This document shows positions 1,411 through 22,894 of a DNA stretch of 64,000 nt, in pieces. Within the stretch, counting starts at the first letter, position 1. Each line of letters begins with the position of its first letter. The DNA comes from Gammaproteobacteria bacterium (GTDB lineage Bacteria > Pseudomonadota > Gammaproteobacteria > Eutrophobiales > Eutrophobiaceae): positions 2,240,001-2,304,000 of the forward strand of contig OZ220696.1 of NCBI GenBank assembly GCA_965116495.1, read 5' to 3'. Below the pieces are notes generated by a model, which had not been told where the DNA came from, ran no database searches, and saw nothing but the letters and a program-made list of their open reading frames with translations. A program made the translations under genes and the position numbers.

Positions 1411-2472
1411 ATGTTTCTGGCTACGGATCATTCGACTCAGGTCACCTCCGATTTACCCCCTCACTGCACCTTTTCGGAAAGTGACTGGCACATACTGGCC
1501 GGTTTCTGGCACCCTGTTGCATTTCTCCATGATATCGGTGACAAACCTGTCGCCGCCAGGTTACTCGATGTGAACCTGGTGGTCTACCGTACCAGCGAAG
1601 GCATCACGGTGGCGCATGACCGGTGCATGCACAGGGGAACCAGGCTGAGCCTGGGTTGGATGCAGGAGGACCTGCTGGTCTGTCCCATGCACGGCTTGCA
1701 TTATGACGGTCAGGGTGTTTGTCGAAAGATACCGTCCATCGCCGATCCCGATGCGAGAATACCGGAGAAGTTGCGGCTTAAAACCTGCCGGACGGAACAA
1801 CGCTACGGCATTATCTGGGTCTGTCTGAAAGATGACCCGGCCTGGCCGTTACCTTACTGGTGCCACCTGGAAGATTCTCAATTTCAATCCATGTATGTTC
1901 CTCCAGGGAAGTGGCAGGTTGCAGCGGGCCGTCACGTCGAAAACTTTAACGACGTGGCGCACTTCCCCTGGGTCCATGGCGACACATTCGGCGGTGAAAT
2001 GGACGCAGCCTTTCCGTTATACCGGGTGGAACAGACTGATTACGGTCTCAGCTTTCGATTACCTTACCTGGAACTGGGCAACCGCTTTCCTGACGGGAGA
2101 GACGATTTGCAAAACCGTGAAGTCGTCTACAGTTACGAGTTAACGTTTCCGTTTTCCACCCTGCTGGAAGTCAATGTGCAGGAGTCCGATTATATACAAG
2201 TGATACTGGATACGGTGTGCCCTATCTCCGCGCATGAGAGCGGCATTTTCCAAATCCTGGCCGACAACTCCGGTGAGCCGGTCTTGGATAGGGTGATACA
2301 GGAAACGATAGACATAAATAAAGAAGACCAGCCCCTGGTGGAAGCGCAATCACCGGAATTTTTGCCGCTTGATTTGCGCGAGGAGATCCATATTCCTGCT
2401 GATCGAATGTCACTGGAATACAGGAAGGCGCTTGCCGGAAAATTTAACCTGGGTGCACCGGCTATAAGTTAA
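1411..2472 (+). CDS. Rieske non-heme iron oxygenase alpha subunit (VanA/NdmA-like)
   Basis: Rieske ligands CMHRG...CPMHG; mononuclear Fe motif ENFNDVAHFPWVH; distal Asp in EDQPLVEAQ. Confidence 0.92.
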   Translation: MFLATDHSTQVTSDLPPHCTFSESDWHILAGFWHPVAFLHDIGDKPVAARLLDVNLVVYRTSEGITVAHDRCMHRGTRLSLGWMQEDLLVCPMHGLHYDGQGVCRKIPSIADPDARIPEKLRLKTCRTEQRYGIIWVCLKDDPAWPLPYWCHLEDSQFQSMYVPPGKWQVAAGRHVENFNDVAHFPWVHGDTFGGEMDAAFPLYRVEQTDYGLSFRLPYLELGNRFPDGRDDLQNREVVYSYELTFPFSTLLEVNVQESDYIQVILDTVCPISAHESGIFQILADNSGEPVLDRVIQETIDINKEDQPLVEAQSPEFLPLDLREEIHIPADRMSLEYRKALAGKFNLGAPAIS

Positions 2473-2489
2473 ACCCGCGAGAAGACAAG

Positions 2490-3473
2490 ATGACCAACGA
2501 TGCAATCATGCTCAATGACTGGTATGCGGTAGCGAACGCCCGGGCACTCTCGGACGGTGATAAGATCGCAACACAATTGCTGGAACAGGACATACTTGTC
2601 TGGCGCAGTCACGGTGAGATACATGCCTGGCTGGACCGCTGTCCCCACCGTGGTTCCAGGTTGTCTTTGGGCGACATCAGGAATGGCGACACGGTCGTTT
2701 GTCCCTACCACGGCTGGCATTTTAATGCCGCCGGTCGCTGCATCTGGATGCCTGCCCATCCTGGTCACCCTATCTCGGAAAGGGCCAGGACGACCCGGCT
2801 GCATGTGCAGGAGAAATACGACCTGGTGTGGGTGTGCCTGGGTGAACCGGCCGGCGACGTACCGCTGTTTCATGGTGTGGATGAGGATTATCACCTGGTG
2901 ATCACCGGGCCTTACGACGTCGAGACCAGCGGCCCCCGGGCCGTAGAGAATTTTCTGGACCTGTCGCATTTTCCCTTCGTACATACCGGTTACCTGGGAG
3001 AGGAACCCTATACGGAAATGGATGAGTACGATGTCGAGGTGATTGACAGCGAAATCAGCGTCACCAACGCGACCGTCTATCAACCCCGGGCCAATGTGAC
3101 CAGCGAGGAAGGCACCAAGGTTGCCTATTCCTACCGGGTACTGCGGCCGTTGACCGTCATGCTCACCAAGGAGCCCGGCGCGGCCGGCGAAAAACCATCC
3201 GACTTGATAATGATGTCGATACAACCGAAGGAGGAAACCCGTATCCGCGCCTGGTTTGTCCTTGCAATGAACTATGGTCATGGCGACCCGGAAGAAAACT
3301 TCCGGGATTTTCAGGATACGATCTTCTACCAGGACAAGGCAGTGCTGGAATCACAGCGGCCCAGGTGTTTGCCGCTGGATCCCGGTGCAGAGTTACACCA
3401 GCCGGCCGACAAGGTTTCGAACGTGTACCGGCGCTGGCTGAAAGAAATGGGATTACGTTATGGAACGAGTTGA
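2490..3473 (+). CDS. Rieske non-heme iron oxygenase alpha subunit (SxtT/VanA-like)
   Basis: CPHRG...CPYHG; ENFLDLSHFPFVH; QDKAVLESQ; C-terminal YRRWLKEMGLRYG. Confidence 0.92.
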   Translation: MTNDAIMLNDWYAVANARALSDGDKIATQLLEQDILVWRSHGEIHAWLDRCPHRGSRLSLGDIRNGDTVVCPYHGWHFNAAGRCIWMPAHPGHPISERARTTRLHVQEKYDLVWVCLGEPAGDVPLFHGVDEDYHLVITGPYDVETSGPRAVENFLDLSHFPFVHTGYLGEEPYTEMDEYDVEVIDSEISVTNATVYQPRANVTSEEGTKVAYSYRVLRPLTVMLTKEPGAAGEKPSDLIMMSIQPKEETRIRAWFVLAMNYGHGDPEENFRDFQDTIFYQDKAVLESQRPRCLPLDPGAELHQPADKVSNVYRRWLKEMGLRYGTS

Positions 3474-3479
3474 GTAACA

Positions 3480-4616
3480 GTGCAGACCCGCGCGGATGAC
3501 CCGCTGAAATTTGTTATTGCGGTAATTGCCGCCCAGGTGGCCGGTGGATTGGTGACGCAGATGTCTCCCCTGGTGGTGGGCGGCGTTATCATCGGTCTTG
3601 AACTAACGGAACAACAGGCCGGTTTTGTCGCATTTGCAGAATTTATCGTTTTATCGCTCACCGCAATCGCGATAGCGCCGTTTCTGCCAAGACTGTCTTG
3701 TCGAGCACTGTGTTTCTGTGCCGCGAGCGTTGCCATTGCCGCCCAGGTTATCTCCATATTATTAACCGACTTGAATCTGATAGTGATCATGAGGTGTATA
3801 GCAGGCGTCGGCGAGGGCCTGGTGTATGCCGCATCGCTGGCCGCGGTGGCGTCACGTTCGGTCAACCCGGACAAGTTGTATGGTTATATCCAGGTGACCT
3901 GGGCAGTATTGAGCACCTTGTTGTTTACCGCAGGAGGCTACCTTACCGATATGTTCGCCCACCGTGGTATATACGGCATGATCGCCGGCATCACAATTGT
4001 CCTGATGATTTTTTTGCGCTGGCTGCCGGCCGGTGTTACGGCATCGGCTGAATCAGTCAATAAAAATCACAACGCTGCGCCGCCCTGGATGGGTATCGTC
4101 ACGTTAGCGGGAATTTTTATTTATCTGACCGCATCCGCGGCCATATATACTTTCACTGCGCCGTTGGGTGAACGGGCAGGGCTGTCAACGAACCAGATCG
4201 GCTATGCCCTGACCACAGGATCAGCCGTTGGTTTCAGCGGCGCAGTTCTGGCAACCTGGCTGAATATACGCAGGGGACGGGCCGTTCCTGTTTCGGTCTT
4301 CTCGGTTGCGTTCTCAATCATAGCCATCGTGTTATGTGTTAATACCCACCCTGTAATCTATGTGGTTACCCTGGTTCTGTCAGTCGTATTTTTCTATTTC
4401 TCTGTCCCCTACCTGTTCGGCCTGGCCGCGGCATTGGATGAGCAAGGCCGCTGGGCGGCGGCGGCGGGCTCTGCCTATTTGCTGGGTTTTGCCGTGGGGC
4501 CGGCCTTAGCCGGCACGATGATCGAGTGGTATGACTACATCGGACTGGGAGTGGCATCCGTTATAGCCACGATCATGGCCTGGATACTGTTGTTGGTGGT
4601 GGTCAGAAATTTGTAG
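3480..4616 (+). CDS. Major facilitator superfamily transporter
   Basis: About 12 hydrophobic segments; RCIAGVGEG motif; clear paralogue of 16277..17461. Confidence 0.88.
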   Translation: MQTRADDPLKFVIAVIAAQVAGGLVTQMSPLVVGGVIIGLELTEQQAGFVAFAEFIVLSLTAIAIAPFLPRLSCRALCFCAASVAIAAQVISILLTDLNLIVIMRCIAGVGEGLVYAASLAAVASRSVNPDKLYGYIQVTWAVLSTLLFTAGGYLTDMFAHRGIYGMIAGITIVLMIFLRWLPAGVTASAESVNKNHNAAPPWMGIVTLAGIFIYLTASAAIYTFTAPLGERAGLSTNQIGYALTTGSAVGFSGAVLATWLNIRRGRAVPVSVFSVAFSIIAIVLCVNTHPVIYVVTLVLSVVFFYFSVPYLFGLAAALDEQGRWAAAAGSAYLLGFAVGPALAGTMIEWYDYIGLGVASVIATIMAWILLLVVVRNL

Positions 4617-4642: not shown

Positions 4643-5285
4643 AAAACTGGAACCCCCCAGCTTTGCTGCGGAGACGCGCACAGTTTGACAGTTGCGGAAA
4701 TCTCATGGTAACTCCCAAGTGTGAACCGCCAAGCATCACACGATGGAGGAACCATGACAGAGATAAGCAGTTTAAGTCATACCCGCTGGGAATGTAAGTG
4801 TCATGTGGTATTTATCCCGAAGTATCGACGGAAGATGTTATTCGGCCAGATACGGTGGGAGTTAGGCGAGGTGTTTCACCGCTTGACCCGGCAGAAAGAG
4901 AGTGAGATAGAAGTGGGTCACGTGATGCGGGATCATGTGCACATGATGTTGTCGATACCGCCGAAGTATGCGGTGGCGCAGGTGGTGAGGTACATCAAGG
5001 GGAAGAGTGTGATCCATATAGCATAGACATATATGGGTCGGCAGAGGAATTATGCAGGGTAACCCTTTTGGGCGAGGGGATATTTTGTCTCGACGATGGG
5101 TCGGGATGAGCAGGTTATCCGGGAGTATGTACGAGATCAGGAGCGAGAAGATCAACGTATTGAGCAATTGAACTTGGTGTAAGAGTTGACCCCTTCAAGA
5201 ATCTCAAGGAGCCGACAGGCTCCGTTCATTACCGCTTTGAGCGGTTCACAAACTAAAGCCCCCGGCTTTGCCGGGGGATATTTAC
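4643..5285 (+). mobile_element. IS200/IS605-family insertion sequence (tnpA-only IS200 type), inactivated
   Basis: Left subterminal hairpin CCCCCCAGCTTTGCTGCGGAG, tnpA pseudogene, right hairpin CCCCCGGCTTTGCCGGGGG followed by ATATTTAC; no terminal inverted repeats. Confidence 0.85.
4754..5182 (+). pseudogene. tnpA: Y1 (HUH) transposase pseudogene with two in-frame stops
   Basis: SLSHTRWECKCHVVFIPKYRRK, HUH motif DHVHM, IKGKS, FWARGYFVST, catalytic Tyr in EYVRDQE; stops TAG 5024-5026 and TAA 5060-5062. Confidence 0.9.
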
Positions 5286-5532
5286 TTGTGACCGTACCCC
5301 CTAATGTCGAATACAGATCCGGAACTTGAAGACTGGAAAGAACTTCCATGCCGCACCCCTCGCTCTGGCATTGATGCATTCGGTTGTCCCGGTTTCGCTG
5401 GGCTGACCGTTGGAATTTCACTGGAGGCATCAGTGCGGCCTGCATTCCGCGACGACACCTGACGCCTCGTTTGCTTCGTCGGTAGTGCATAATCTGTATC
5501 TTCGGGAGCACTATTCACTCGTATTTAAGCCA

Positions 5533-7836
5533 TTAGGGAATAGTGTCAAAGCGGACAAAAAATTCCTTCGCGCCATTAGAAATCTTGAACGCCGATTCAA
5601 GCTCTTTTGGAACAGGTACAAAGATTCGATCTTTGGTAATTATTGTTGTTGTCGGAAACATTGCGCCGCCTGTCGTGCCAGTCTCAAGCGGCTCCTTCAG
5701 TTTGAGGTCGTAATACAGGTTCAGTTCTCCAGTGCTGTCTGTAAAGATGTAGATTACACGGTGCGAGCCCCACATGAGCTTAGTCGTATGAGGCTGCCGT
5801 AGGAACTCGCCCTCTCTCCGAGCAAGACGCTCCGAGAGTGAAAGAAACATCTGAAAGCCATTAAGCTTCGAATGTGGCTCCCCAACTGTCAAAACCTTCA
5901 TGTCGCTGGTTAGCTCTAGTCGCAGAATAGGAGGTGACGCCTCATATGCATTGGCAGGTGGACCGTTATCTCCTGTACCAATAATGTCCGGTAACTCCTC
6001 CTCGACGGTGCCAATCTGATCCATTCGAACTTCCTGTCGTTGCCCGACCCCGTGCCCCGCAGATGATCTGATGACCTGTTCGAGATTAGCTTTTCCGGAG
6101 AGATAGTCAGCCAAGAGCGACTCTGCTTCGCCAAAGTCGCTTAAGTCGTATCTGAAGAGTTCCTCGTTCTCTTTAAGGCGACGATAGAGAGCGTCCCTTC
6201 CTTGCCTCGTGGAAGAAGGAACTTGATCGCGGATTTGCGGGTAAACGTGCTGCCTCACAAAATCGATCACGAACCCATGAAACACCTCCGGCGCCGATTG
6301 GTACGATTCAACGACCATACGTACCGCAGGCATATCACGTGCAAGCGAGATTTGAAGTCTATCGCCCTGACCTTCGATATGCAGGGACACGCTATGGCTG
6401 ATTGTGGCAAACGCGGCATCGACATCGGGCATGAAATAGTCATCAAGGAGGACACCTCTGAGACGCACCAAAAACATGGCTTCCTCCAGCGTAAGCTGTG
6501 TCTGGGGAAAACGCTCTACAAGAACTCTCTCCGGCACCTCCTCGACAGCCGAAATCTCGCGCAAGAAATGTAGTTGAAGTTTGCGTCTCGGATTAGCCTG
6601 ACTGACATGAAACAGGTTTGCTTCTTCACCAGAAAACCGTCGTTGAACTGTCGCGTCCTGTCCAGCGTAAAAAAGTTTAGACTTTACAGGCTCAAAGTCC
6701 CTTACGTCGCCAAGAGGCACCTGCCTATTACCTCCAGGAAGAACCGAGATCTTGATGTTCTTTGCAAGCGGAATAAGGCCATGGGAAAGAATATATCGTT
6801 GGAACTGCTGATTTTGATCTGCTGATACTGTTTGTGCGATGTCTTTTGACGCTTCAGCCTCGACCAAAGAGACGATATTATTGACAAACTGGATGCTTTC
6901 ACGGCTAAGTGCTTCCCGGCCGGCTGTAGGATTGAGGATGTTTAGGTTTACAAAACCACCAAAGTCATAAGCGCCCGAGATGGGAATTGGGGCAAGTCCG
7001 AACAAATTCCGAAAGCCGAGTGTCTGCTGGCCTCCCCCCTGCACAAAAAAAGCCTCACCCTTAATGGGATTGTTATTCAACGCAATATCCGTGATACGAA
7101 CAAGAACGCGCGCCTGCTCGTTAACGAACGTTCGAAGTATGCCAGATAACTGACCGTTAGATATGGTCCTTGAAGCGATTTCTTCAAAACCTTCAGCCTT
7201 GTTACCAAGTGTATCTTCAAACTGCTCCTGACTAATGATATTACCATTTACACGAACAGGAACAGGCAAAAAGCGGACATATTGTCTGAGATACTCTGAT
7301 GCCTCAGCCTCATTAATAGGAAAATCCGGATCAAGATCAGCCTTAATGATCGTGCCGGGCTCACGACCATCCTCAACGCGCTCAAGGTCGATGCAATTCT
7401 GTGCGATGCGCAAATCGGCGCGCTTGGCGGAGCTAATCAGTGTGACGCTGGTTTCGATGTTTCGGGACTCAACTTGCAAAGCAGTGCAGACACCGAAGTT
7501 GGCCATGGCCCCAATTCCGAATGTCCCAATTACCCCGGACCGTTGCGCAAGATCCGATTTCTTGCCGCTTGACCCTGCCTTCCAGAAGTTACTTCTCAAC
7601 ACTTCTTCCGTCATACCAATACCATCGTCGCGGACAGCTAGTTTTCCCTCACCTACGGTAATCTGTATCTCTCTGTCAGTAATCGGGAGATTATGGGCCG
7701 TACAGCGCATCAGAATGGCGTCATATGCATTCTGGACGTTTTCGCGTAAGAATGCCTTCGGAGAGTCATATATTTCAGACGAAAGAATCTGTAAGACTCT
7801 ATCGGTCGCGACATCAAATGCTATACGCTTTTTCAT
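5533..7836 (-). CDS. Divergent Hsp90/HtpG-like GHKL ATPase (767 aa) with unrecognised C-terminal region
   Basis: N-terminal FDVATDRVLQILSSEIYDSPKAFLRENVQNAYDA, DDGIGMT, IGTFGIG and GT motifs of the Hsp90 ATPase fold; remainder not recognisable as housekeeping HtpG. Confidence 0.82.
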   Translation of the reverse strand: MKKRIAFDVATDRVLQILSSEIYDSPKAFLRENVQNAYDAILMRCTAHNLPITDREIQITVGEGKLAVRDDGIGMTEEVLRSNFWKAGSSGKKSDLAQRSGVIGTFGIGAMANFGVCTALQVESRNIETSVTLISSAKRADLRIAQNCIDLERVEDGREPGTIIKADLDPDFPINEAEASEYLRQYVRFLPVPVRVNGNIISQEQFEDTLGNKAEGFEEIASRTISNGQLSGILRTFVNEQARVLVRITDIALNNNPIKGEAFFVQGGGQQTLGFRNLFGLAPIPISGAYDFGGFVNLNILNPTAGREALSRESIQFVNNIVSLVEAEASKDIAQTVSADQNQQFQRYILSHGLIPLAKNIKISVLPGGNRQVPLGDVRDFEPVKSKLFYAGQDATVQRRFSGEEANLFHVSQANPRRKLQLHFLREISAVEEVPERVLVERFPQTQLTLEEAMFLVRLRGVLLDDYFMPDVDAAFATISHSVSLHIEGQGDRLQISLARDMPAVRMVVESYQSAPEVFHGFVIDFVRQHVYPQIRDQVPSSTRQGRDALYRRLKENEELFRYDLSDFGEAESLLADYLSGKANLEQVIRSSAGHGVGQRQEVRMDQIGTVEEELPDIIGTGDNGPPANAYEASPPILRLELTSDMKVLTVGEPHSKLNGFQMFLSLSERLARREGEFLRQPHTTKLMWGSHRVIYIFTDSTGELNLYYDLKLKEPLETGTTGGAMFPTTTIITKDRIFVPVPKELESAFKISNGAKEFFVRFDTIP

Positions 7837-9290
7837 CGCCTTGTTGATTTGAGCCTTGAGCTATATTTATCTCGAATTTCAATCACTGAAGGATCAGCGG
7901 ATTCAGCGATTATAGAGATATCAATGATCTCGGCTAGTCGCTTTCGCCTTCCGACATCCCATAGCGCGTCCATCACGTGAATTGCTTCCGCTTCACTTGC
8001 GGGCGGATCAAAAGTCTTAAGAAGGGATTTTGTGTCATTGAGTTTGAGCAGACAATCCAGAAGTAATTGCCTAGAGAGCCCCTCCTGTTTGACGACAGCA
8101 ATAAGAAGATCAACCGCCTTCTTGTATTCGCCCCTGATATGTAAGTCCTGCGCTTCTATCAGCACATTCGTGGTGTCGTTCATGGTAGAGAACCGTGGTG
8201 GAGGCGGATCGTATTTAAATTCATAGTATGGATAGGCATGAGACGGAAGCGCGCGGCGCCCCCATATCGGCAAGCGGAGATTGTCGTTTTGCACTTCCCG
8301 GACATGTAAGCGTCCGGTTCTTTCGGCGGTGCTGAGTTCAATGACGTTGTAGGCGCGCCCATGTCGGAAATCGGGGCCACCACAAAGTGTTCCCGCACTG
8401 ATGACGGTGATCTTCCGTTCCATCCCATGTCGGAACCTCGTATTTAGATACTGCGGTCGGTGCTGGTGTCCGTGCAATCCAAGGCTGAAACCACGATCCA
8501 TGAGGTTTTGTACGAGGTCGGGGTCCATGTAGTCAGAACGGGCGGGGGGGCCTTCGGTATTATGATGCCAAACCGCCATTCGCAGGCGGCTAGCATATGG
8601 TCGGTGACGAAGCCGGATTCCTGCTTCGGCTATACATCCGGGGTGTATCGCTCCTTGCCTGTTGTAAAGGTCATTGTTGTAGCAGCTCGAAAAACCGACG
8701 ATAGTGAGGTCAAACTCGGGGTAGTCGAAAATGTCGATTTGCTTGGCCGGATCAAGGTCATAGGACCGTTTGCCTTTGTAAAACTTGCGATAGAATTGGG
8801 CGAAAGCGTCCATGCGCTTCATATACATGGTTTGATCTGCGATCTTGTAGAGTTTCAAATCATGCCAAGACCACCGAAACGACGACTCAGGCAAGAAGAG
8901 TTGGTCAATTAGATCCTTTTTCCCATCCGGCAGGATGTCAATAAGTTCGAGGCTCTTGGCCAGATGGTAAGTGCTCATGTCGTGATTGCCGGGTACGATG
9001 ACTACGCGTTCTCGATCACCTTCAACAAAGCGCTCAGCGAGCTGGATCAAGAAATCGGACGCCTCGTCATACTGTTCGAGCAGGCATTTATAAGGTTCTG
9101 GAACATCGGACTTGATTCCGTAAATAATGTCGCCGCTTACAACAATCAGATTAGGAGGGCGGACTTTCGGATCTTCTTCGGTAGAGAAGTGACGGCAATC
9201 ATTTTCAAGTGAATCAAGCAAAACATCATTCCGTATTGGATTGTTTCTATCACGGTGTAAATCAGAGATATGCAGAATGGAAAGGTTCAT
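7833..9290 (-). CDS. Calcineurin-like metallophosphoesterase with helical C-terminal extension
   Basis: Motifs HISDLH, VSGDI, VPGNHD, WHH, LHGHQH; stop overlaps the next start (ATGA 7836-7833). Confidence 0.88.
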   Translation of the reverse strand: MNLSILHISDLHRDRNNPIRNDVLLDSLENDCRHFSTEEDPKVRPPNLIVVSGDIIYGIKSDVPEPYKCLLEQYDEASDFLIQLAERFVEGDRERVVIVPGNHDMSTYHLAKSLELIDILPDGKKDLIDQLFLPESSFRWSWHDLKLYKIADQTMYMKRMDAFAQFYRKFYKGKRSYDLDPAKQIDIFDYPEFDLTIVGFSSCYNNDLYNRQGAIHPGCIAEAGIRLRHRPYASRLRMAVWHHNTEGPPARSDYMDPDLVQNLMDRGFSLGLHGHQHRPQYLNTRFRHGMERKITVISAGTLCGGPDFRHGRAYNVIELSTAERTGRLHVREVQNDNLRLPIWGRRALPSHAYPYYEFKYDPPPPRFSTMNDTTNVLIEAQDLHIRGEYKKAVDLLIAVVKQEGLSRQLLLDCLLKLNDTKSLLKTFDPPASEAEAIHVMDALWDVGRRKRLAEIIDISIIAESADPSVIEIRDKYSSRLKSTRR

Positions 9291-9638
9291 ATGACTCCCC
9301 TAGAAGGAGCGACAAAATCATTCTCGTCAAATGGCAACAATACGAAGATATCATGTAAGCAACCACTGTAGTATCGAGGCGAATACAGGTGTTATGCTTG
9401 TCAGATCCCGGAAACCTAGCTTGTGCCCCACGGTATCGCACAGGTTCAGATACGTTTTCTCTTCCATGGAGCGAACGTTGTCCGCCATCCTCATCTGCAA
9501 GTGGATCTTCATATCGTCGTCGAGATTGCGGATCGCTTGCCATGGGTGGGAGTTCCGTTCACCCGCAAACCCAATTTACGCGGCGATTGCATCGGTTTCA
9601 TGCAGCACCTATTACCTGTTTCTGTTACCCGCGACAGC

Positions 9639-11231
9639 CTACGCAACCGGTTCCTCAAACAACTCGACTTGCTTTTCCCGTTGCGGTCGCGCCCACTCGG
9701 GTAACAGTTTGGTGATCGCTTCCGCAGGGACATTCCCGAGTTCATTCGGTTCCAGCTTGTGCAGTCCGCCACCGTAGACGCGACCTTCCCTAAGCATCGC
9801 CTGCGGGCAAATCTCGTTCAGGAACTCCCAGACCTGTCGTTTCAGAGCTGGCCTATCTTGTAGAGCGCGCTTGATAGGTCCCTTCGGGTACAACATCAAA
9901 TACACGTTCGCAGCCGTTGCCTTCGAATTGTTCAGTATGAAACGAAACGGCTTGCCACTCTTTTTGTCACTTCGGCCGAGATAGGTACAGACGAACGGTG
10001 CCGGAGGCCGGTATTCCTGCGTGTACCACAGCGTCCGATGCCGGCAGAGATAGCGATCAGCGATGCCTTCCGTCTTGCCTTCTTCTAGATAGTCCCACAG
10101 CCTTGGATAGCGTTCCCTGATCTCGTTTTCCGTCCATGGAGGGTCAAGCAGGAACAAACGCCGTTCCAGCACTGGGTTACCTTGCCGATCACCTTTGATC
10201 TCGTCGTCCGGCACATAGCGAGGGCTCGGCAGGATCGGCTTGAATGCTCCCAGTGGCAGCCTACGTCGCTCAACCTCCTGCGCTGACAGAATGAAGTAGT
10301 TGTTGTTGCCCGTAGCTAGGCCCCGCTTGATCTTGAAGAAATCGCCCAGCACCAGCCCCTCAGCCGCTTCATAGCCCTCCTTCATCGGATAGCGTGTCCA
10401 TTTTGGATCGCGGCGCAATGTCTGGATCGGTATCAACCGTTCCAGTTTCGGTCGTTCCAGCGTTCCGCCATAGGTAAATCGCACATCATGTCCTATTTGA
10501 GGAGGTTTGTTGCGGAACCACACCACGGCCGACGACACAAGCGAGTCACCGAACTGCACATCGTTCGGATCGAAGCGATGAATGTGCAGAAGAGTCACCT
10601 TGTCAAGCAAGTAACGTTTTACCGAGATGCCGTAATTTACGTCCATAAACTCACTCGGGATCAACCACCCCGCTAGGCCACCCTCGGCCATCCACACATG
10701 ACTCAAGCCTAGGAAATAGCAATATAGACCGGCCAGTCCGTTGATCTCCACCCCAGAGAAGTCCAGCGTACGTAGCTTCAATCGTCGTTTCTCGCAGTTA
10801 ACGATATGATGGTGCCGCACATAGGGTGGATTACAGATCAGCAGGTTGAACTTTTCGGCAACCCCTGGCGCTTCAGCATGTGTGAAGTCTTCTAGGCGGA
10901 TATCCAGCCCCGTCTCACCCCATAGTTTCGCCGCCGGTCTGCCGTAATGCGGATCGACCTCAAACCCCAAAGCAGCAGCGATACGGGCCTGCGGAAACAC
11001 ATCCAGCAGCGCCGAGTAGAATGAGCCTGTTCCGAACGCCGGGTCCATGAACCGCACTTTCTCGTTCTTGGCGAGATGCGCCTTCGCGTAGCGCTGTATG
11101 TCGACAGCCAAGCCCGTCGGCGTCGCAAACTGCCCCATCCGGTTTCGCACCGTCGCGTCTCTATGTACGTCCAGTTCTTCCTGAAGGGCGAGCCGCCGCG
11201 CCTCCAACTCTGCGACTTCTTTCTTCATCAT
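9639..11231 (-). CDS. N6-adenine DNA methyltransferase (gamma class, Eco57I/TaqI-like) of a type II RM system
   Basis: MGQFATP, motif I FMDPAFGTGSF, motif IV ICNPPYVRH, C-terminal GRVYGGGLHKLEP; abuts the endonuclease gene. Confidence 0.92.
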   Translation of the reverse strand: MMKKEVAELEARRLALQEELDVHRDATVRNRMGQFATPTGLAVDIQRYAKAHLAKNEKVRFMDPAFGTGSFYSALLDVFPQARIAAALGFEVDPHYGRPAAKLWGETGLDIRLEDFTHAEAPGVAEKFNLLICNPPYVRHHHIVNCEKRRLKLRTLDFSGVEINGLAGLYCYFLGLSHVWMAEGGLAGWLIPSEFMDVNYGISVKRYLLDKVTLLHIHRFDPNDVQFGDSLVSSAVVWFRNKPPQIGHDVRFTYGGTLERPKLERLIPIQTLRRDPKWTRYPMKEGYEAAEGLVLGDFFKIKRGLATGNNNYFILSAQEVERRRLPLGAFKPILPSPRYVPDDEIKGDRQGNPVLERRLFLLDPPWTENEIRERYPRLWDYLEEGKTEGIADRYLCRHRTLWYTQEYRPPAPFVCTYLGRSDKKSGKPFRFILNNSKATAANVYLMLYPKGPIKRALQDRPALKRQVWEFLNEICPQAMLREGRVYGGGLHKLEPNELGNVPAEAITKLLPEWARPQREKQVELFEEPVA

Positions 11232-12368: not shown

Positions 12369-12402
12369 CCCACTACTTTCTCCTTGGTTTGCTGCTAGTT
12401 TC

Positions 12403-12431: not shown

Positions 12432-12574
12432 CAGCAGCAACGCTCACTCGAATCTCCTTCAGACGACTACGCGGAACGTGCTCGGAGATGATTCGCCGGT
12501 CATCTTGCCCAATCACCGCAACGGCTCCAACATCTTGCGACGCCGACGTTTAAAGCCGGTAGCATTGTGCAGAG

Positions 12575-12744
12575 CAACCCTTTTGGGCGAGGGGATATTT
12601 TGTCTCGACGATGGGTCGGGATGAGCAGGTTATCCGGGAGTATATACGAGATCAGGAGCGAGAAGATCAACATATTGAGCAATTGAACTTGGTGTTTGAG
12701 CGGTTCACAAACTAAAGCCCCCGGCTTTGCCGGGGGATATTTAC
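12575..12744 (+). mobile_element. Partial second copy of the IS200-family element (tnpA 3' end plus right end)
   Basis: Near-identical direct repeat of about 5060-5285 lacking about 55 bp of the post-tnpA spacer; identical CCCCCGGCTTTGCCGGGGGATATTTAC end. Confidence 0.9.
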
Positions 12745-12841
12745 TACGAGTTCATCGCAATATTGAAATGCTTGGCTCTCATTGATAGTGTCCGCTAAAA
12801 AGTGTTACATTTAGTCAACCCAGCCGATAATTTTTACTTTC

Positions 12842-13867
12842 ATGCCTGCCGACGATATAAAACAATTTATCCATGAGATACCGAAAGCAGAGTTGCATAT
12901 ACACCTGGATTCGGTTCCCCCGGAATTACTGCTGAGATGTGCACGGCGTAATAATGTGGAGCTTCCTTTTTCGGACGTTAAGGGCGCAATCGAGTGGTAC
13001 CGGTTCAATGACCTTGAAGAATTTTTACAGAAATGGGAAGTGACTACCGGCGTGTTATTTACAGAAACCGATTATTACGAGATAGCTCTGGAGTTGGGCA
13101 AGGACATGCAGCGACAGAACATCATTCGGCGGGAAGTGATGTTTACCTATGCGGCTGCCCATGAAGGCAGGGTGGAACTGGATACGATTATGCAAGGACT
13201 GGCCCGTGGCCGTCAGCAGGTAAAGGAAGAATTCGGTCTTGATCTTTATTTTATTGCCGACATTGATCGGACCATCAGTCCGGAACGAAGCCTGAACTAT
13301 GTTAATGAAATTGCAGCCTATAAAGACGAAGTCGGGATCCTTGGAATCGGATTGGATTGCCAGGAGGTGGGTTATCCTGCCGGTGTTCACAAAAATGCGT
13401 TTGCTCGCGCCAGGGAACTCGGCTTTAAATTATCTGCCCATTGTGGTGAGGAATATGCTGCGGGGCCTGAAGGCGTCTGGGATGTGGTTAACGACCTGAA
13501 CGTGGACCGGATTGACCATGGCAACCAGGCAATACGGGATAATGATCTGATCGAACATATTGTCGGGCATGATATTCCCATGACTCTTTGTCCGGTAAGC
13601 AATGTTTCGATCAATGTTTATGAGTCGATTGCAGAACATCCGATTATTGAATTGAGAAACAGGGGCGCTACCGTTACGGTAAACTCCGATGACCCGCCTT
13701 TTTTTCAAACGGATTTAAATACAAATTTCACTCAACTGGCTGAGGCGTTCAATCTTGGTGTGGACGACATCATTCAACTGGTCCGAAACAGTTTTTCCTG
13801 TTCTTATGCCTCAGACGAAGAAAAGACTGCTTATCTGGCCGGATTGGATGATTGGTGTCGTGGGTGA
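12842..13867 (+). CDS. Adenosine/adenine deaminase family amidohydrolase
   Basis: PKAELHIHLD, SAHCGEE, RIDHG, LCPVSN and NSDDP metal-binding motifs. Confidence 0.9.
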   Translation: MPADDIKQFIHEIPKAELHIHLDSVPPELLLRCARRNNVELPFSDVKGAIEWYRFNDLEEFLQKWEVTTGVLFTETDYYEIALELGKDMQRQNIIRREVMFTYAAAHEGRVELDTIMQGLARGRQQVKEEFGLDLYFIADIDRTISPERSLNYVNEIAAYKDEVGILGIGLDCQEVGYPAGVHKNAFARARELGFKLSAHCGEEYAAGPEGVWDVVNDLNVDRIDHGNQAIRDNDLIEHIVGHDIPMTLCPVSNVSINVYESIAEHPIIELRNRGATVTVNSDDPPFFQTDLNTNFTQLAEAFNLGVDDIIQLVRNSFSCSYASDEEKTAYLAGLDDWCRG

Positions 13868-16266: not shown

Positions 16267-16276
16267 ATAGTTTAAA

Positions 16277-17461
16277 TTGAACGTGCCGGATTCTCCACAT
16301 AAATCCAGTGATAAATTATTTTTCGTATACGCAGTAATAGCTGCACAGGTAATTGGTGGTGTAATTACCCAGCTATCACCTCTGGTGATCGGGGGAGTGA
16401 TAACAGGACTGACGCTCTCCGCCCAGCAAGCAGGTTATATCGCATTCGCTGAATTTCTGGTGTTGTCCATTACGGCGATCCTGGTTGCACCCGTATTACA
16501 CAGATTCCCTTATCGTACTATATGCTTTTCTGCGGTTTGTCTCGCAATAACTGCAAATGTTATATCTGTCCAGGTGACTGCCCTGACTACCATGATCATA
16601 GTAAGATGCCTGGCCGGTATCGGCGAAGGTATAATTTATGCCATCTCACTGGCAGCAGTTGCCTCGCATTCCCGTAATCCGGACAAGGTTTATGGTTACT
16701 TTCAAGTCGCCTGGGCGCTGGTCAGCGTTATTCTTTTTTCTGCCGGCGGTTATCTGACAGATATGTATGCCCATCGGGGAATTTTCGGCCTGACCGCAAT
16801 CGTTATGATTATTCTGGTGTTTTTCCTGAGAGGTTTACCATCGGATAAGCTGGCGACAGTAAACAGCAAGCCTGTGGCCGGGAGCGAAATACCGACAATG
16901 CTGGGAATTTGTACACTAGCCGGAATATTTATATTTATAGCGGGAGGAGCAGCCGTTTACACGTTTTTTGAACAAATAGGTGTTCGCAGCGGATTGACTA
17001 CTACCCAGGTTGGGTTTGTATTAACGGTTGGCAGCGGTGTCGGAATAATAGGCGCCGGTCTGGCCACCTGGTTGAACGTGCGGAAAGGGCGATTTATTCC
17101 TGTTACAACTTTTTGTATCTGGTACGCCTCAACAAGTATGGTTCTTTGTTTGAACAGCAATGCAACGGTCTACATTGTTGCAGTTATGTCATCGTTTATA
17201 TCATTTTACTTTGCAGTTCCGTATTTGTTTGGCCTGGCTGCTGCATTGGATAAATTGGGCAGGTTGGCCGCCGCCGCAGGTTCGGTGTATTTACTGGGAT
17301 TCGCTTTTGGACCCATGATTGCGGGCAACCTGATCGAGTGGCATGGCTATGCCGGACTGGGGTTCGCCTCAGCGTCTACAACAATGCTGTCCTGGTTGAT
17401 TTTAGTATATATTGTATATCGCCTGGGCACACAAAAACCTGCAGCCGTGCAGAACGACTGA
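16277..17461 (+). CDS. Major facilitator superfamily transporter
   Basis: About 12 TM segments; shares AVIAAQVxGG, NPDKxYGY and VPYLFGLAAALD with 3480..4616. Confidence 0.88.
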   Translation: MNVPDSPHKSSDKLFFVYAVIAAQVIGGVITQLSPLVIGGVITGLTLSAQQAGYIAFAEFLVLSITAILVAPVLHRFPYRTICFSAVCLAITANVISVQVTALTTMIIVRCLAGIGEGIIYAISLAAVASHSRNPDKVYGYFQVAWALVSVILFSAGGYLTDMYAHRGIFGLTAIVMIILVFFLRGLPSDKLATVNSKPVAGSEIPTMLGICTLAGIFIFIAGGAAVYTFFEQIGVRSGLTTTQVGFVLTVGSGVGIIGAGLATWLNVRKGRFIPVTTFCIWYASTSMVLCLNSNATVYIVAVMSSFISFYFAVPYLFGLAAALDKLGRLAAAAGSVYLLGFAFGPMIAGNLIEWHGYAGLGFASASTTMLSWLILVYIVYRLGTQKPAAVQND

Positions 17462-17474
17462 AGAACTGTCAACG

Positions 17475-18497
17475 ATGAGTAATGACCATTGTATCCAGCC
17501 AGTAAGCAGTACTTTTTCTGAGAACAACTGGAACATACTGGCGAACTGCTGGCATCCTGTCGCCTTCAGCAGCGAGGTCACAGACAAGCCGTTCGCGGCT
17601 ACGTTACTTGATGTCCCATTAATAATATACCGTACCAACGGAGGTATTATTGTTGCAAAACGGAATTGTCCGCACCGTGGCGCAGACCTGAGTCAGGGAT
17701 GGCTAAAAGATGGCCAACTGGTGTGTGCATACCATGGTCTGCATTACGACAGTTCCGGGCAGTGTACGTTGATCCCGGCAGAGGGTCATGATGCGAAGGT
17801 TTCTCTTAAATTACGCTTGAGCACCTTTCAGGCAATCGAGCGCTATGGATTGATCTGGACCTGCCTGGGTTCCGAACCCCGATTTACGTTACCTGACTGG
17901 AGCGCGCTCGAAACATCAGAATACCAGGTCATCGAATTAAGCACGGAATGGCAAACCTCGGCAGCCAGACACACGGAAAATTTCCTTGATATCGCACATG
18001 CCGCATGGATACATGCTGATACATTTGCGCCCCGGGATTATCCGGAGATCGGTAAATTTGACGTAGAGCAAACAGCAGAGGGACTTTATTACCAAATTAA
18101 AACCATGTTTTTGGCGGCTAACACATTTGAATACAAAGGTACAGTAGAGGAATGCCTGTCAGAATATACCCTGACCATGCCTTATGCGATATGTTTGAAG
18201 GTGACATCATCCGTTGGTGTTGAGTATATTTTTGATGTGGCAACACCCGTTTCGACAGACAAAATACGAATCTTCATGCTGAAGGCGCGCAACTTTGATA
18301 AAGACAAACCGGTATCTGACTGGTTGCAATTCCAGGAAGTTGTCAATGAAGAAGACAGAAGGATAGTTGAGAACCAGTATCCGGCGTACCTGCCGTTGGA
18401 TTTGTCACAGGAATTCCATATCCGGGCCGATATTATATCTATTGCATACAGAAGGAAATTGTCAGAGTTGGGTATCCGGCAAGAAGGGGGGTATTGA
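17475..18497 (+). CDS. Rieske non-heme iron oxygenase alpha subunit (VanA/NdmA-like)
   Basis: CPHRG...CAYHG; ENFLDIAHAAWIH; EDRRIVENQ; start moved to ATG 17475 to avoid overlap with the MFS gene. Confidence 0.9.
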   Translation: MSNDHCIQPVSSTFSENNWNILANCWHPVAFSSEVTDKPFAATLLDVPLIIYRTNGGIIVAKRNCPHRGADLSQGWLKDGQLVCAYHGLHYDSSGQCTLIPAEGHDAKVSLKLRLSTFQAIERYGLIWTCLGSEPRFTLPDWSALETSEYQVIELSTEWQTSAARHTENFLDIAHAAWIHADTFAPRDYPEIGKFDVEQTAEGLYYQIKTMFLAANTFEYKGTVEECLSEYTLTMPYAICLKVTSSVGVEYIFDVATPVSTDKIRIFMLKARNFDKDKPVSDWLQFQEVVNEEDRRIVENQYPAYLPLDLSQEFHIRADIISIAYRRKLSELGIRQEGGY

Positions 18498-19429: not shown

Positions 19430-19458
19430 TTATACATTTAGTATAGATTAGGGAAATG

Positions 19459-19492
19459 TGACTTTCAGACAAATAATCTTCACTTGCAAACA
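19459..19492 (+). promoter_or_regulatory. Candidate AraC-type tandem binding site
   Basis: Imperfect direct repeat TGACTTTCAGACA / TCACTTGCAAACA with 21-bp period in the divergent araC-gcvT-like intergenic region. Confidence 0.5.
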
Positions 19493-19539: not shown

Positions 19540-20766
19540 TTGAGCGTACATATACAAGCCACCGATTTTGTCGGCACACCGTTTAATGCCCGAACGGCAC
19601 CGTTAAATTATAACCAGCGCTGGGTTGCCTGGGACAAGTATCACATAGTGGATACATTTAACGGTTTTGACGCGGAATACCATGCCATCCGTAACGCCGC
19701 CGCAACCATAGACATGTCCCCGCTGGGGAAATACGACATTATCGGCCCCGATGCGAAACGATTCCTGGATTACCTGGTGACACGTGACATGACCGGTCAG
19801 CAGGTCGGACAGATCTATTATTCACCCTGGTGCAACGACAACGGAAAAACAGTGGGTGACGGCATGATATTCAGGTTGGAGAAGGATAAATTTCGCATTT
19901 CCACCGATCCCCAGTACCACTGGCTTAATAAACATGCACAGGGCTTCGATGTTGAGATTATAGATATCAGTCATGACTACGGCATACTGGCCTTGCAGGG
20001 GCCGAAATCACAACTTATCCTGGAAGCGTCGACGGGTGAGGACTGGTCCGATTTTGCCTTCTCGCGCATCCGCCATATAGATATTGATGGAGTTGCTGTT
20101 ACGGTCATGCGCCAGGGATTTACCGGTGAGCATGGTTATGAGTTGTGGGTGGAGAACGAAGATGCTGTCGCAGTCTGGGATGCCGTTTACCGGCACGCAG
20201 GACGCTTCGGTTTGCAGCCTGCCGGGTTCCACGCCCATGACGTGGCGCGCATGGAAGCAGGATTGATCATAGTAGGCCCTGACTACACAGGAGCAGGAAC
20301 CGACATGGATCGCGGCGCGGCTATCGAAGTGGACAGGCAGGACGAAAGGTCTCCGTATGAGATGCGTATAGGGAGTTTCGTACATCTGGATAAAGCCAGC
20401 TTCATCGGCAAGGAGGCGCTGAAGCGGGAAAAGGAAACGGGGGCAGCCAGGAAAATGCGGGGGTTACTGATTGATTGGGAGGGAATTGCCGGGTTATATA
20501 TAAAACAGGGGCTGCCGCCGGTGGTCGTGCCTGTACCGATCTGGTATCCGTTAAATATCACGATGAACAACAAAACAATCGGCCGGGCTACCAGCATTGC
20601 CTGGAGCCCCGCTGCAAACAGCATTGCCGGTTTCGCATTTGTTGACGCGGAATACAGTGAAGCGGGTACGGAGGTCTCGGTACAATTCGAAATCGGCCAG
20701 GAAACCGGCCTGGTGAATGCCACCGTGGCAACGCTGCCTTTCATCGATATTAAACGTACCGGATAA
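19540..20766 (+). CDS. GcvT-family (aminomethyltransferase / THF-dependent demethylase-like) protein
   Basis: EYHAIRNAAATIDMSPLGKY, LALQGPKS, RQGFTGEHGYELW, ARMEAG, FIGKEAL; SD AGGAG before TTG. Confidence 0.9.
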   Translation: MSVHIQATDFVGTPFNARTAPLNYNQRWVAWDKYHIVDTFNGFDAEYHAIRNAAATIDMSPLGKYDIIGPDAKRFLDYLVTRDMTGQQVGQIYYSPWCNDNGKTVGDGMIFRLEKDKFRISTDPQYHWLNKHAQGFDVEIIDISHDYGILALQGPKSQLILEASTGEDWSDFAFSRIRHIDIDGVAVTVMRQGFTGEHGYELWVENEDAVAVWDAVYRHAGRFGLQPAGFHAHDVARMEAGLIIVGPDYTGAGTDMDRGAAIEVDRQDERSPYEMRIGSFVHLDKASFIGKEALKREKETGAARKMRGLLIDWEGIAGLYIKQGLPPVVVPVPIWYPLNITMNNKTIGRATSIAWSPAANSIAGFAFVDAEYSEAGTEVSVQFEIGQETGLVNATVATLPFIDIKRTG

Positions 20767-20859
20767 TGACGCTCCATGGAAAGGGCACAGGTTTCAAATC
20801 TGTCCCCCGCGAAATTCGTAATCGATATCAAACGCGGCGGGTGACAGCGAGGTGAAATA

Positions 20860-21837
20860 ATGACTGAAGTGATCAAACAATATTGGCATCCTGTCGGGTT
20901 GGCCGGAAACTTGACCGATGAAAAACCCATCGCGGCAACGGTATTGGGAGAGGACCTGGTGGTCTGGCGTTCAAAGGACAAGCTCTGCGCCTGGAAAGAC
21001 CTCTGCGTGCATCGTGGAGTACGATTGAGCCTGGGGACTGTTTGCAACAACCGCCTCCGCTGTGCCTATCACGGCTGGGAATATAATGACGCTGGGCAGT
21101 GCGAGCATATCCCGGCCCATCCCGAGATCAGAATGCCGGCCAAGGCCAAAGCAACTGCTATTTACAAGGCCAGGGAATATGCCGGGTTGATCTGGGTAAA
21201 TCTCAGCGATACTTCACGCCCTTTGCCTGATCTGCCCCAGTTCAATGAACCTGGTTACCGGGTAATTCCCTGCGGCCCTTATGAAATCAACGCCGCCGCC
21301 CCGCGGGTAGTGGAAAACTTCCTGGACCTGTCCCACCCGCCGATCCTGCACGACGGCATATTGGGGGATTCAAGTCACGCAGCCATTGATGATTACCGGG
21401 TGGAAGATACGGAAGAGGGATTTTTTGTAAAGAATATACGCTATTACCAACCCGATCCGGATGGCACGGGAGTAGGAGGGGATGCCTGGTATGATTTCGG
21501 TATCCTGGCCCCGTTAACGGTTTACTTCGTGAAACACATTGGCTCGCCCGCAAATGAGGAAAAGTTTGTCCTCATGTTTGCTGTCAGGCCTGAGACCGAA
21601 AACAGGTCCTGGGCACATTTTATCGCCGCTTATAACTACGCTGCGGATTTGAGTGAGCAGGACATTGCTGACTTTCACAGCCTGATTATCGGTCAGGACA
21701 TTCCCATACTCGAATCCCAGCGCCCCGAATTATTGCCCGTGGACCTGAGCGAAGAACTGCACCTACGATCGGATTTATTTACCTCAAAGTACAGGCGCCA
21801 CTTGAAGGACATCGGCATGGATTTTGGAGTTGCATGA
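20860..21837 (+). CDS. Rieske non-heme iron oxygenase alpha subunit (SxtT/VanA-like)
   Basis: CVHRG...CAYHG; ENFLDLSHPPILH; QDIPILESQ; paralogue of 2490..3473. Confidence 0.92.
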   Translation: MTEVIKQYWHPVGLAGNLTDEKPIAATVLGEDLVVWRSKDKLCAWKDLCVHRGVRLSLGTVCNNRLRCAYHGWEYNDAGQCEHIPAHPEIRMPAKAKATAIYKAREYAGLIWVNLSDTSRPLPDLPQFNEPGYRVIPCGPYEINAAAPRVVENFLDLSHPPILHDGILGDSSHAAIDDYRVEDTEEGFFVKNIRYYQPDPDGTGVGGDAWYDFGILAPLTVYFVKHIGSPANEEKFVLMFAVRPETENRSWAHFIAAYNYAADLSEQDIADFHSLIIGQDIPILESQRPELLPVDLSEELHLRSDLFTSKYRRHLKDIGMDFGVA

Positions 21838-21838
21838 C

Positions 21839-22894
21839 ATGTATTTACCCCCCAGCCACTCAACCACAACAGATTATCCGGCCGGCAGCGGTATTTCTGA
21901 AAATGACTGGCATATCCTGGCTGCTTTCTGGCACCCGGTAGCATTTACCTCGGAGATCAAGGACAAGCCCCTGGCTGCCCGGTTGCTGGATACCGACCTG
22001 GTGATCTACAAAACCGCGGCGGGATTCACGGTTGCTAAAGATCAATGTGCTCATCGCGGCGCAAAACTCAGCCTGGGCTGGTTGGATGACGACGGGAACA
22101 ACGTAGTCTGCCCGTTTCACGGCCATCATTACAACCACCAGGGGACGTGTACAAAAATTCCGTCCTATGCTGATCGTGATATGCCTGTTCCTGCGAAGAT
22201 GCGTTTAACGGTCTATCAATCGGTTGAACGCTACGGCCTGCTATGGGTGTGTCTCAAGGACGAACCCGTGCGGCCGTTGCCCGACTGGCCATTGCTGGAA
22301 AATCACGACGCCGGCTGGCTCAGGATCGAAATACCCAAGGGAGTCTGGCAGGCCTCTGCCAGTCGCCACTGTGAAAACTTCAATGATCTTGCCCATATTT
22401 CCTGGGTACACATGAAGACATTCGGGAACCGCCAGCGCCCGCAGTTGGAGGACTATATTCTGGAGCGTACCGACTACGGCCTGCACATGGAACTGCCTTA
22501 TGTCGAAGTGGAAAGAGGATTTAACGACGACAATACCGGTGAGCGGGAAGTCTACTATACCCATGACCTGACCTATCCGTACGCAACTGATCTCAAGGTT
22601 GATTATACGGAAGACATGACCAGCCATTTTTATGATATAGCCTCACCCGTGAGCGCCGCGGAAACAGCCATCTACCAGATCTCACTCACCAATATTCAAG
22701 GGGCGACAGCAGAAGAATATGCCGAGTACCAACTGGTAACAAACTCGGAGGATGTCGTTGTCGTAGAAAGCCAGAGGCCCCTTTCAGTGCCGTTAAATCC
22801 CGGTGCGGAAGTCTCGATACCCGCGGACAAGTTCTCAATTCAATACCGGCGTGACATGGTGAATTTATTTGGTATAGGCCAATCCAGGGTTTAG
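21839..22894 (+). CDS. Rieske non-heme iron oxygenase alpha subunit (VanA/NdmA-like)
   Basis: CAHRG...CPFHG; ENFNDLAHISWVH; paralogue of 1411..2472 (DWHILAxFWHPVAF); GGAG SD before ATG 21839. Confidence 0.92.
   Translation: MYLPPSHSTTTDYPAGSGISENDWHILAAFWHPVAFTSEIKDKPLAARLLDTDLVIYKTAAGFTVAKDQCAHRGAKLSLGWLDDDGNNVVCPFHGHHYNHQGTCTKIPSYADRDMPVPAKMRLTVYQSVERYGLLWVCLKDEPVRPLPDWPLLENHDAGWLRIEIPKGVWQASASRHCENFNDLAHISWVHMKTFGNRQRPQLEDYILERTDYGLHMELPYVEVERGFNDDNTGEREVYYTHDLTYPYATDLKVDYTEDMTSHFYDIASPVSAAETAIYQISLTNIQGATAEEYAEYQLVTNSEDVVVVESQRPLSVPLNPGAEVSIPADKFSIQYRRDMVNLFGIGQSRV

Follow-up and report, generated by a model that had tools for sequence, protein, structure and literature searches.

In a 64,000-nucleotide stretch of the genome of an uncultured marine gammaproteobacterium (contig OZ220696.1, positions 2,240,001 to 2,304,000; hereafter the window), we describe a locus at positions 1411-22894 that combines five Rieske oxygenases (R1-R5) with a diverged deaminase of the adenosine/adenine deaminase family, importers, a GcvT-like enzyme and an AraC-family regulator. 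We read it as a candidate route by which methylated purine-type bases are imported, N-demethylated or hydroxylated step by step, and deaminated, and give this reading a probability of roughly 0.4. The family of the oxygenases, the co-conservation of the genes and the nucleobase-related neighbors of distant relatives of R2 and R4 argue for it.

A conserved locus of five oxygenases and a diverged deaminase would provide a concrete and testable route for bacterial use of methylated purine bases, for which we found no pathway in print, and the bases consumed could be host alkaloids or products of nucleic-acid turnover. Moreover, R1-R5 would be candidate biocatalysts for regioselective N-demethylation.

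Gene content of the locus

The window belongs to a closed genome of 4.34 Mb (G000). A preliminary description of this DNA had reported five intact Rieske oxygenases on the forward strand, and the listing of open reading frames (ORFs) and Pfam searches agree with it, since Rieske and VanA_C domains were found in all five. The deaminase-family gene, TonB receptor, paralogous MFS pair, GcvT-like gene and AraC regulator that it named were likewise all recovered with Pfam or NCBIfam models. The genes are as follows (aa, amino acids):

1411..2472, + strand: R1, A-type (NdmA-like) Rieske monooxygenase, 353 aa; Rieske and VanA_C domains (Pfam); best solved match NdmA, 147.6 bits
2490..3473, + strand: R2, B-type (SxtT/GxtA-like) Rieske monooxygenase, 327 aa (Pfam); SxtDIOX, 218 bits over residues 2-326
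3480..4616, + strand: MFS1, inner-membrane transporter; MFS_1 (Pfam)
12842..13867, + strand: diverged hydrolase of the adenosine/adenine deaminase family, 341 aa; A_deaminase (Pfam) and TIGR01430
13984..16224, + strand: TonB-dependent outer-membrane receptor; plug and barrel (Pfam)
16277..17461, + strand: MFS2, inner-membrane transporter (Pfam)
17412..18497, + strand: R3, A-type Rieske monooxygenase, 361 aa (Pfam); NdmA, 131.1 bits
18599..19429, - strand: AraC-family regulator, divergent from the GcvT-like gene; HTH_18 and HTH_AraC (Pfam)
19540..20766, + strand: GcvT-like tetrahydrofolate-binding enzyme, 408 aa; GCV_T and GCV_T_C (Pfam)
20860..21837, + strand: R4, B-type Rieske monooxygenase, 325 aa (Pfam); SxtDIOX, 196 bits
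21824..22894, + strand: R5, A-type Rieske monooxygenase, 356 aa (Pfam); NdmA, 130.0 bits

The oxygenases are arranged as two A/B pairs (R1 with R2, R4 with R5) plus an extra A-type enzyme, R3; the reading frames of R4 and R5 overlap by 14 nucleotides (nt), and MFS1 and MFS2 share 55.7% identity. A Pfam scan of positions 1-26144 found no reductase or GST domain. The locus, an accessory and modular island, has a G+C content of 0.44-0.54, against 0.55-0.61 for much of the remaining window.

Conservation among relatives

Twenty-three genomes of the genus were searched, G000 counted in, and 20 kb around R2 were compared in 11 relatives. An R2 orthologue (76-94% identity) is present in 12 of the 23 genomes and an R4 orthologue in nine. 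Five relatives (G019, G014, G001, G020 and G002) keep the full order R1-R2-MFS1-deaminase-receptor-MFS2-R3-AraC-GcvT-R4-R5, free of the island that interrupts it in the window, with protein identities of 84-97% (92-95% for the receptor). Three others (G005, G006 and G011) have a reduced core, R1-R2-receptor-MFS-AraC-R4-R5, whose receptor is only 55-58% identical to that of the window, and in the last three (G015, G016 and G022) there are remnants, R2 or R1-R2 only, beside FTHFS.

The gene order thus recurs in five other genomes and its core in three more, which answers the synteny check proposed with the preliminary description. The AraC gene is kept in all eight relatives that have both oxygenase pairs, and the deaminase lies inside the locus in six of the nine genomes with both pairs. 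It had been suggested earlier that the deaminase-family enzyme belongs with the Rieske genes, and its being neither co-conserved nor co-induced with them was named there as one refutation; it is co-conserved, and as a diverged paralogue. Since half of the ten Rieske genes of the NdmA/SxtT clade in this 4.34-Mb genome fall within the locus and the gene order recurs in five genomes, the clustering is not due to chance.

The oxygenases and their closest characterized relatives

To our knowledge, only two functions are known in this Rieske branch, caffeine demethylation and saxitoxin hydroxylation. As a measure of relatedness we used the HMMER bit scores of matches to solved chains. R1, R3 and R5 score highest with NdmA, and R2 (218/215 bits) and R4 (196/196 bits) with SxtDIOX/GxtA and SxtT, to which they align end to end, whereas the O-demethylase DdmC reaches 48-90 bits against the five enzymes, compared with 130-218 bits for NdmA or SxtT/GxtA. 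By bit scores the five therefore appear to group with NdmA/NdmB and SxtT/GxtA and not with DdmC-type O-demethylases, as the affinity proposed earlier implied. The likeness of the termini of R2 and R4 to the saxitoxin hydroxylases, noticed before by eye, also stands; of the strings quoted for it, NDWYAVA and YRRWLKEMGLRYG are present in R2, and R4 has only variants (YWHPVGLA and YRRHLKDIGMDFG).

The Rieske Cys-His-Cys-His ligands, the bridging Asp and the His-His-Asp iron triad are kept in R1-R5. Forty-six ORFs of the genome match these enzymes and ten of them make up the NdmA/SxtT-like group, in which the A type comprises R1, R3, R5 and two paralogues at 2.71 Mb (mutual identity 38-48%) and the B type comprises R2 and R4 (39% identical).

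The substrate pockets set these proteins apart from the enzymes of known function. The ligand contacts of SxtT listed in PMC7293229 are Arg204, Gln226, Ser230, Asp239, Met255, Tyr273 and Thr276; the corresponding residues are Ala, Val, Lys, Ile, Phe, Phe and Thr in R2, one of seven kept, and P, V, K, L, F, F and L in R4. Both guanidinium-binding residues, Gln226 and Asp239, are replaced in R2 by Val and Ile, and ENF stands in place of SxtT's DNS at the purine-stacking position. For NdmA, the pocket given in a preprint (bioRxiv 10.1101/2021.12.17.472166) consists of F168, F174, F223, L248, N282, V285 and F286, at which R1 has F, F, S, L, T, I and N; three of seven are kept, the two selectivity positions 282 and 286 carry Thr and Asn in place of Asn and Phe, and R2-R5 differ too. 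F168, which stacks on the purine ring in NdmA and is Ser in SxtT, is kept in all ten clade paralogues of the genome, and the other pocket positions vary among R1-R5, as would be expected if each enzyme handled a different position or substrate. None of R1-R5 is thus an orthologue of NdmA or SxtT, so that neither the guanidine-toxin half of the preliminary description nor its methylxanthine link, taken at the level of orthologues, was borne out.

R2 is part of a large, unannotated family of 3614 proteins (E <= 1e-20), some of which, from Caldilineaceae, Noviherbaspirillum and others, share 45-49% identity with it (over 320 bits) and are closer than SxtT.

In this context, the locus would be an Ndm-like Rieske demethylation system in an extended gene setting. 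It shares with NdmA/NdmB of Pseudomonas putida CBB5 the alpha-only architecture of Rieske plus VanA_C and the presence of several paralogous oxygenases in one locus, at about 30% identity to NdmA. The Ndm cluster also encodes NdmD, a reductase with its own Rieske domain, and the GST-like NdmE; the window locus, in contrast, contains neither, and adds a TonB receptor, MFS carriers, a deaminase and a GcvT-like enzyme. The genome encodes five NAD_binding_1 proteins, all outside the locus and none with a Rieske domain; four, with lengths of 339-360 aa, are Fer2-FAD-NAD reductases, and the one at 4161443-4162525 of G000 has its domains in the order FAD-NAD-Fer2. For SxtT, VanB is reported to serve as the reductase (PMC7293229). 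With SxtT/GxtA of cyanobacteria, R2 and R4 have in common a short alpha-only form of about 330 aa and a C-terminal YRRWLKE-G-YG motif, whereas the gene setting differs, being catabolic with importers here and a biosynthetic cluster there.

The adjacent unlike pairs of the locus also recall the alpha3-alpha'3 hetero-hexamer given for NdmA/NdmB in Table 1 of PMC12445004, so that hetero-hexamers of R1+R2 and R4+R5 are possible by analogy. Tandem unlike pairs of VanA_C-type Rieske genes recur in unrelated taxa, in metagenome-assembled genomes of Acidimicrobiales, Chromatiales and Rhodospirillaceae (L042-L047, L055-L057 and L071), so that the pairing of alpha and alpha' oxygenases may be general.

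The deaminase and the GcvT-like enzyme

The window deaminase scores 235 bits against A_deaminase (PF00962; cut-off 27) and 268.7 against TIGR01430 (cut-off 216.55), with its HxH, His, His and Asp-Asp metal and catalytic motifs intact. Its best solved matches, at 195-200 bits, are 3RYS and 3OU8/3PAN/3PAO, the latter of which we take to be the Pa0148-type adenine deaminase; the match to 3OU8/3PAN is 195 bits over residues 8-320. It differs from known adenine deaminases in its low similarity to any of them and in being set inside an oxygenase/importer locus.

Three full-length deaminase paralogues occur in the genome, with mutual identities of 33-35%. The one at 0.101 Mb, 33.5% identical to the window copy, adjoins xdhABC, a membrane urate oxidase gene, two phosphoribosyltransferase genes, a GcvT-like paralogue and guaB. 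Since nothing in the 400 scored genomes of the class exceeds 39% identity to the window deaminase, and its own paralogues reach 33-34%, it is a diverged, locus-specific paralogue and not the housekeeping gene. The third copy, at 2.707 Mb, has two A-type oxygenase genes, a TonB receptor gene and MFS genes within 13 kb; the combination of deaminase and A-type oxygenase is thus a recurring pairing. The genes around it resemble a taurine-type locus in which oxygenase and deaminase are paired as in the window, and the same region (2700001-2735000 of the genome; L079 and L080) also holds genes for a MocR-type regulator and a cytochrome c, and an MFS gene split by an integrase-type insertion. Five further full-length deaminase paralogues from five genomes (PF00962) showed no oxygenase nearby among the matches listed. 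A deaminase-like fragment at 112589-112756 of G000, upstream of the GcvT-like paralogue, was left unused, being only 27% identical to the window enzyme.

The GcvT-like protein differs from GcvT in remaining below the equivalog cut-offs (TIGR00528, 152.9 against 235.85; NF001567, 207 against 300). Its solved matches are GcvT (150 bits), the C-terminal part of trimethylamine N-oxide (TMAO) demethylase (134), dimethylglycine dehydrogenase (105) and 3TFH (102), a chain deposited as "GcvT-like aminomethyltransferase". Its paralogue at 97001-117000 of the genome (L081), 53% identical, lies 10 kb beyond the 0.101-Mb deaminase and next to guaB. No ORF of the genome passes TIGR00528, although GcvH is encoded at 1.62 Mb. 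Besides the 46 oxygenase matches, the genome has 69 ORFs matching the TonB receptor (both at E <= 1e-5) and encodes six proteins, each about 800-1000 aa long, that include a GcvT-like part; it is heavily invested in oxygenase-based and methyl-group catabolism.

Neighbors of B-type relatives outside the genus

Genes flanking relatives of the B-type oxygenases (36-47% identical) were compared in 32 loci, namely four from genome contigs (33 of 44 ORFs scanned) and 28 of 80 listed metagenome loci, these being the ones longer than 5 kb in the series L085-L132, with 131 ORFs and including L085, a copy from the same genus. As a control, 81 ORFs were scanned in 14 loci whose homologues are more distant (25-35% identity), after three near-duplicates had been removed. 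Genes of PnrA/Bmp-type ABC transporters flank the B-type oxygenase gene in L032, L086, L117, L118 and L123, a xanthine/uracil permease gene lies directly upstream of it in L034 (Bacillus sp. B1-b2), and an adenine deaminase (Adenine_deam_C) gene directly adjoins it in L106; L086 encodes a protein of the cytidine deaminase fold too, and L121 offers the permease type only. A nucleoside or nucleobase link is thus found in seven of the 32 loci (eight with L121) against none of the 14 control loci, one of which (L038) has an enzyme of the xanthine dehydrogenase family. Class-III aminotransferase genes adjoin B-type genes in L036, L101 and L103. The tie of the SxtT-like subfamily to nucleoside and nucleobase transporters in unrelated bacteria suggests a general function for the 3614-protein family.

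Candidate regulation and occurrence in sequence runs

Two copies of a 14-nt box precede genes of the locus:

1288..1301, + strand: GTGAATTTCAGATA, 123 bp upstream of R1, candidate AraC operator
19458..19471, + strand: second copy, GTGACTTTCAGACA, 82 bp upstream of the GcvT-like gene

The pattern GTGAMTTTCAGAYA occurs exactly at these two places only (1288 and 19458) in the 4.34-Mb genome, a count that is not independent because the pattern was derived from the two sites. The relatives G019, G014, G020 and G005 have the box at the corresponding positions, and the spacer between the deaminase and receptor genes (13868-13983) contains a degenerate copy that agrees at 11 of 14 positions. Counts of consensus promoters and terminators were not above those of shuffled sequences. 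A hairpin in the spacer between the receptor and MFS2 genes, GGGGACAGA...TCTGTCCCC, was rejected as a locus signal: with 31 copies in the genome, it is a genome-wide repeat. This REP-like hairpin stands at 16243-16265, 63561-63585 and 29 further sites, often intergenic, and a diverged variant lies in the GcvT-R4 spacer (20767-20859).

Part of 12900-22800 is contained in 20 of the 22 listed sequence runs. One of them, labelled "sponge metagenome" (X8), has a contig of 11 kb that matches 12839-17767 at about 98% identity. Two metatranscriptome runs of one study (X19 and X20) yielded contig pieces of the deaminase, receptor, MFS2, R3, AraC, GcvT-like, R4 and R5 genes, and three RNA-library contigs bridge the deaminase-receptor, MFS2-R3 and R4-R5 junctions; the parts of 12700-23100 that these contigs leave uncovered are no evidence of silence. 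Among the metabolites of sponges and ascidians tabulated in PMC2763108 (Table 4) are poly-N-methylated guanines, isoguanines and adenines, which would be candidate substrates.

Proposed pathway and competing explanations

We infer every chemical step of the following model. The TonB receptor and the two MFS carriers would bring the substrate across the two membranes, and R1-R5 would take electrons from one of the four Fer2-FAD-NAD reductases encoded elsewhere in the genome. As position-specific Rieske monooxygenases, with the A/B pairs possibly assembled as alpha3-alpha'3 hexamers as reported for NdmA/NdmB, they would hydroxylate N-methyl groups, which would be lost as formaldehyde as in NdmA/NdmB, or would hydroxylate the ring. 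The GcvT-like protein may capture the one-carbon unit on tetrahydrofolate, and the deaminase would convert an amino-purine hydrolytically to an oxo-purine, which could enter the xanthine dehydrogenase/urate oxidase route encoded at 0.10 Mb. The AraC protein would turn the gene set on via the box.

A route of uptake, sequential demethylation or hydroxylation, and deamination of N-heterocycles had been put forward in the preliminary description. Family membership, co-conservation and the nucleobase-related neighbors of the B type favor it; its guanidine half is not supported, and the word "sequential" can be kept only as a conjecture. We found no literature linking Rieske oxygenases to methylated amino-purines or to PnrA-type transporters, supplements having been outside the search. 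Modified bases released when nucleic acids are turned over are no less plausible as substrates than the methyl-purines of sponges and ascidians, form a more general pool, and would also fit soil and freshwater relatives. It is doubtful to us that the locus represents, in its widest sense, the first catabolic pathway for poly-N-methylated amino-purines of sponges and other marine invertebrates in uncultured gammaproteobacterial associates, with paired A/B hetero-hexamers, a new branch of adenine deaminases, and a B type standing for a widespread PnrA-linked family of nucleobase/nucleoside oxygenases.

Several observations weigh against the purine reading. The reduced loci of G005, G006 and G011 are devoid of the deaminase, MFS2, R3 and the GcvT-like gene; these four are thus an added module outside the core, whose function does not require deamination. 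The pockets diverge from the known enzymes, as described above, and characterized members of this Rieske clade are few. About three quarters of the B-type loci (24-25 of 32) are without a nucleobase link, MtmB-type methyltransferase genes adjoin B-type genes in L101 and L102, and a tblastn search with 21 window proteins found no deaminase or GcvT homologue beside 48 distant Rieske loci. Bases of about 200 Da do not usually call for a TonB receptor. The box count draws on the two sites that had served to define the motif, and the RNA-library contigs are compatible with carried-over DNA and give neither strand nor level. Furthermore, the 2.707-Mb deaminase paralogue is in an apparent operon with a class-III aminotransferase gene, in a taurine-type locus (thiamine pyrophosphate enzyme, Pta and molybdenum sulfite oxidoreductase), a setting in which amines or guanidino compounds would suit as substrates no less than purines.

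The main rival therefore has methylated amines, betaines or guanidino compounds, such as N-methylated taurines, as substrates, the oxygenases acting as betaine/carnitine N-demethylases, the GcvT-like protein handling the methyl groups and the deaminase hydrolyzing an amidine or guanidine; we regard it as unlikely, though worth serious attention. It draws on that paralogous set, in which deaminase, two A-type oxygenases, TonB receptor and MFS genes lie amid taurine-type genes including a sulfite oxidoreductase with a cytochrome c, and on the AraC protein, whose DNA-binding part scores best against the choline/betaine regulator GbdR (70.6 bits, far below the cut-off). The likeness of the GcvT-like protein to the folate domains of TMAO demethylase and dimethylglycine dehydrogenase points the same way, as do the MtmB-type methyltransferases and a B12-binding protein flanking B-type homologues in L101 and L102, and the six long genome proteins with a GcvT-like part, which are of dimethylglycine-dehydrogenase/sarcosine-oxidase size. 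However, the Rieske enzymes acting on betaine, carnitine or stachydrine (CntA 6Y8J; 3VCA) match R2 and R4 in the Rieske domain only, at 34-39 bits, the window deaminase passes the adenosine/adenine deaminase model, and nucleobase/nucleoside transporters are the most frequent specific neighbors of B-type homologues.

More improbable is that the oxygenases are VanA/DdmC-like O-demethylases of methoxylated aromatics, with the deaminase as a bystander. All five have the VanA_C catalytic domain, and the GcvT-like protein reaches 76-87 bits against LigM and DesA models, folate-dependent methyl handling being known for aromatic O-demethylation; the DdmC scores are nevertheless well below those of NdmA, SxtT or GxtA, Pfam searches found no ring-cleavage or aromatic-acid genes in the locus, and the deaminase is retained inside it in six genomes.

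It is very improbable that R2 and R4 hydroxylate saxitoxin-type guanidinium alkaloids in the degradation or modification of paralytic shellfish toxins: SxtDIOX/GxtA and SxtT are their best full-length solved matches, but the guanidinium contacts are gone from R2, many uncharacterized proteins are far closer to it than SxtT is, and no sxt-type gene was found among the 49 window ORFs scanned. A chance juxtaposition, suggested by the genome's wealth of Rieske oxygenases and TonB receptors (46 and 69 matching ORFs) and by an FTHFS gene whose place beside the locus is only positional, is hardly credible, since it is contradicted by the conserved synteny and runs against the shared upstream box and the RNA-library contigs across gene junctions.

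Flanking regions and the inserted island

At its right-hand edge the locus is followed by a tRNA gene:

22995..23071, - strand: tRNA-Arg(ACG), right-hand edge of the locus

Three neighboring genes were considered as members of the locus and rejected. FTHFS (24468-26144), which adjoins R2 in G015, G016 and G022 alone and does not border the full locus of the five relatives, is thus a positional neighbor and not a pathway gene; the ORF at 23384-24457, resembling an outer-membrane protein, had no match in the loci of 11 relatives; and the AAA_14 ORF at 2-1174 lies next to the remnant loci of G016 and G022 but beside none of the full or reduced ones. Between that AAA_14/DUF4143 gene and R1, positions 1188-1237 form a near-perfect palindrome of 50 nt (25-nt arms, 92% complementary, no spacer). 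Further along, ARAGORN called a tRNA-Met (+ strand) at 52737-52808, inside a 206-aa ORF of the - strand in a pilus gene block, which may be a false call.

The locus is split between MFS1 and the deaminase gene by an element that the preliminary description did not mention:

4721..12745, no strand assigned: inserted island, outside the pathway, with direct repeats at both ends

It is an insertion of about 7.5 kb, bounded by IS200 3'-end repeats (5049-5185/12564-12700, 95% identical; 5236-5286/12695-12745, 100%) and missing from the five full-locus relatives, where the gap between MFS1 and the deaminase gene is 115-124 bp. This defense island contains an IS200 transposase fragment and genes for an HSP90-like ATPase, a metallophosphoesterase, a type II methyltransferase (Eco57I-like) and a XamI-type endonuclease, the last two forming a restriction-modification pair and matching PADLOC models at 439 and 362 bits. 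The genes of the HSP90-like ATPase (767 aa) and the metallophosphoesterase (485 aa) overlap and match anti-phage models weakly (NCBIfam DS9_1, 56 bits; PADLOC, 27-28 bits), and the two could possibly be an uncharacterized defense pair.

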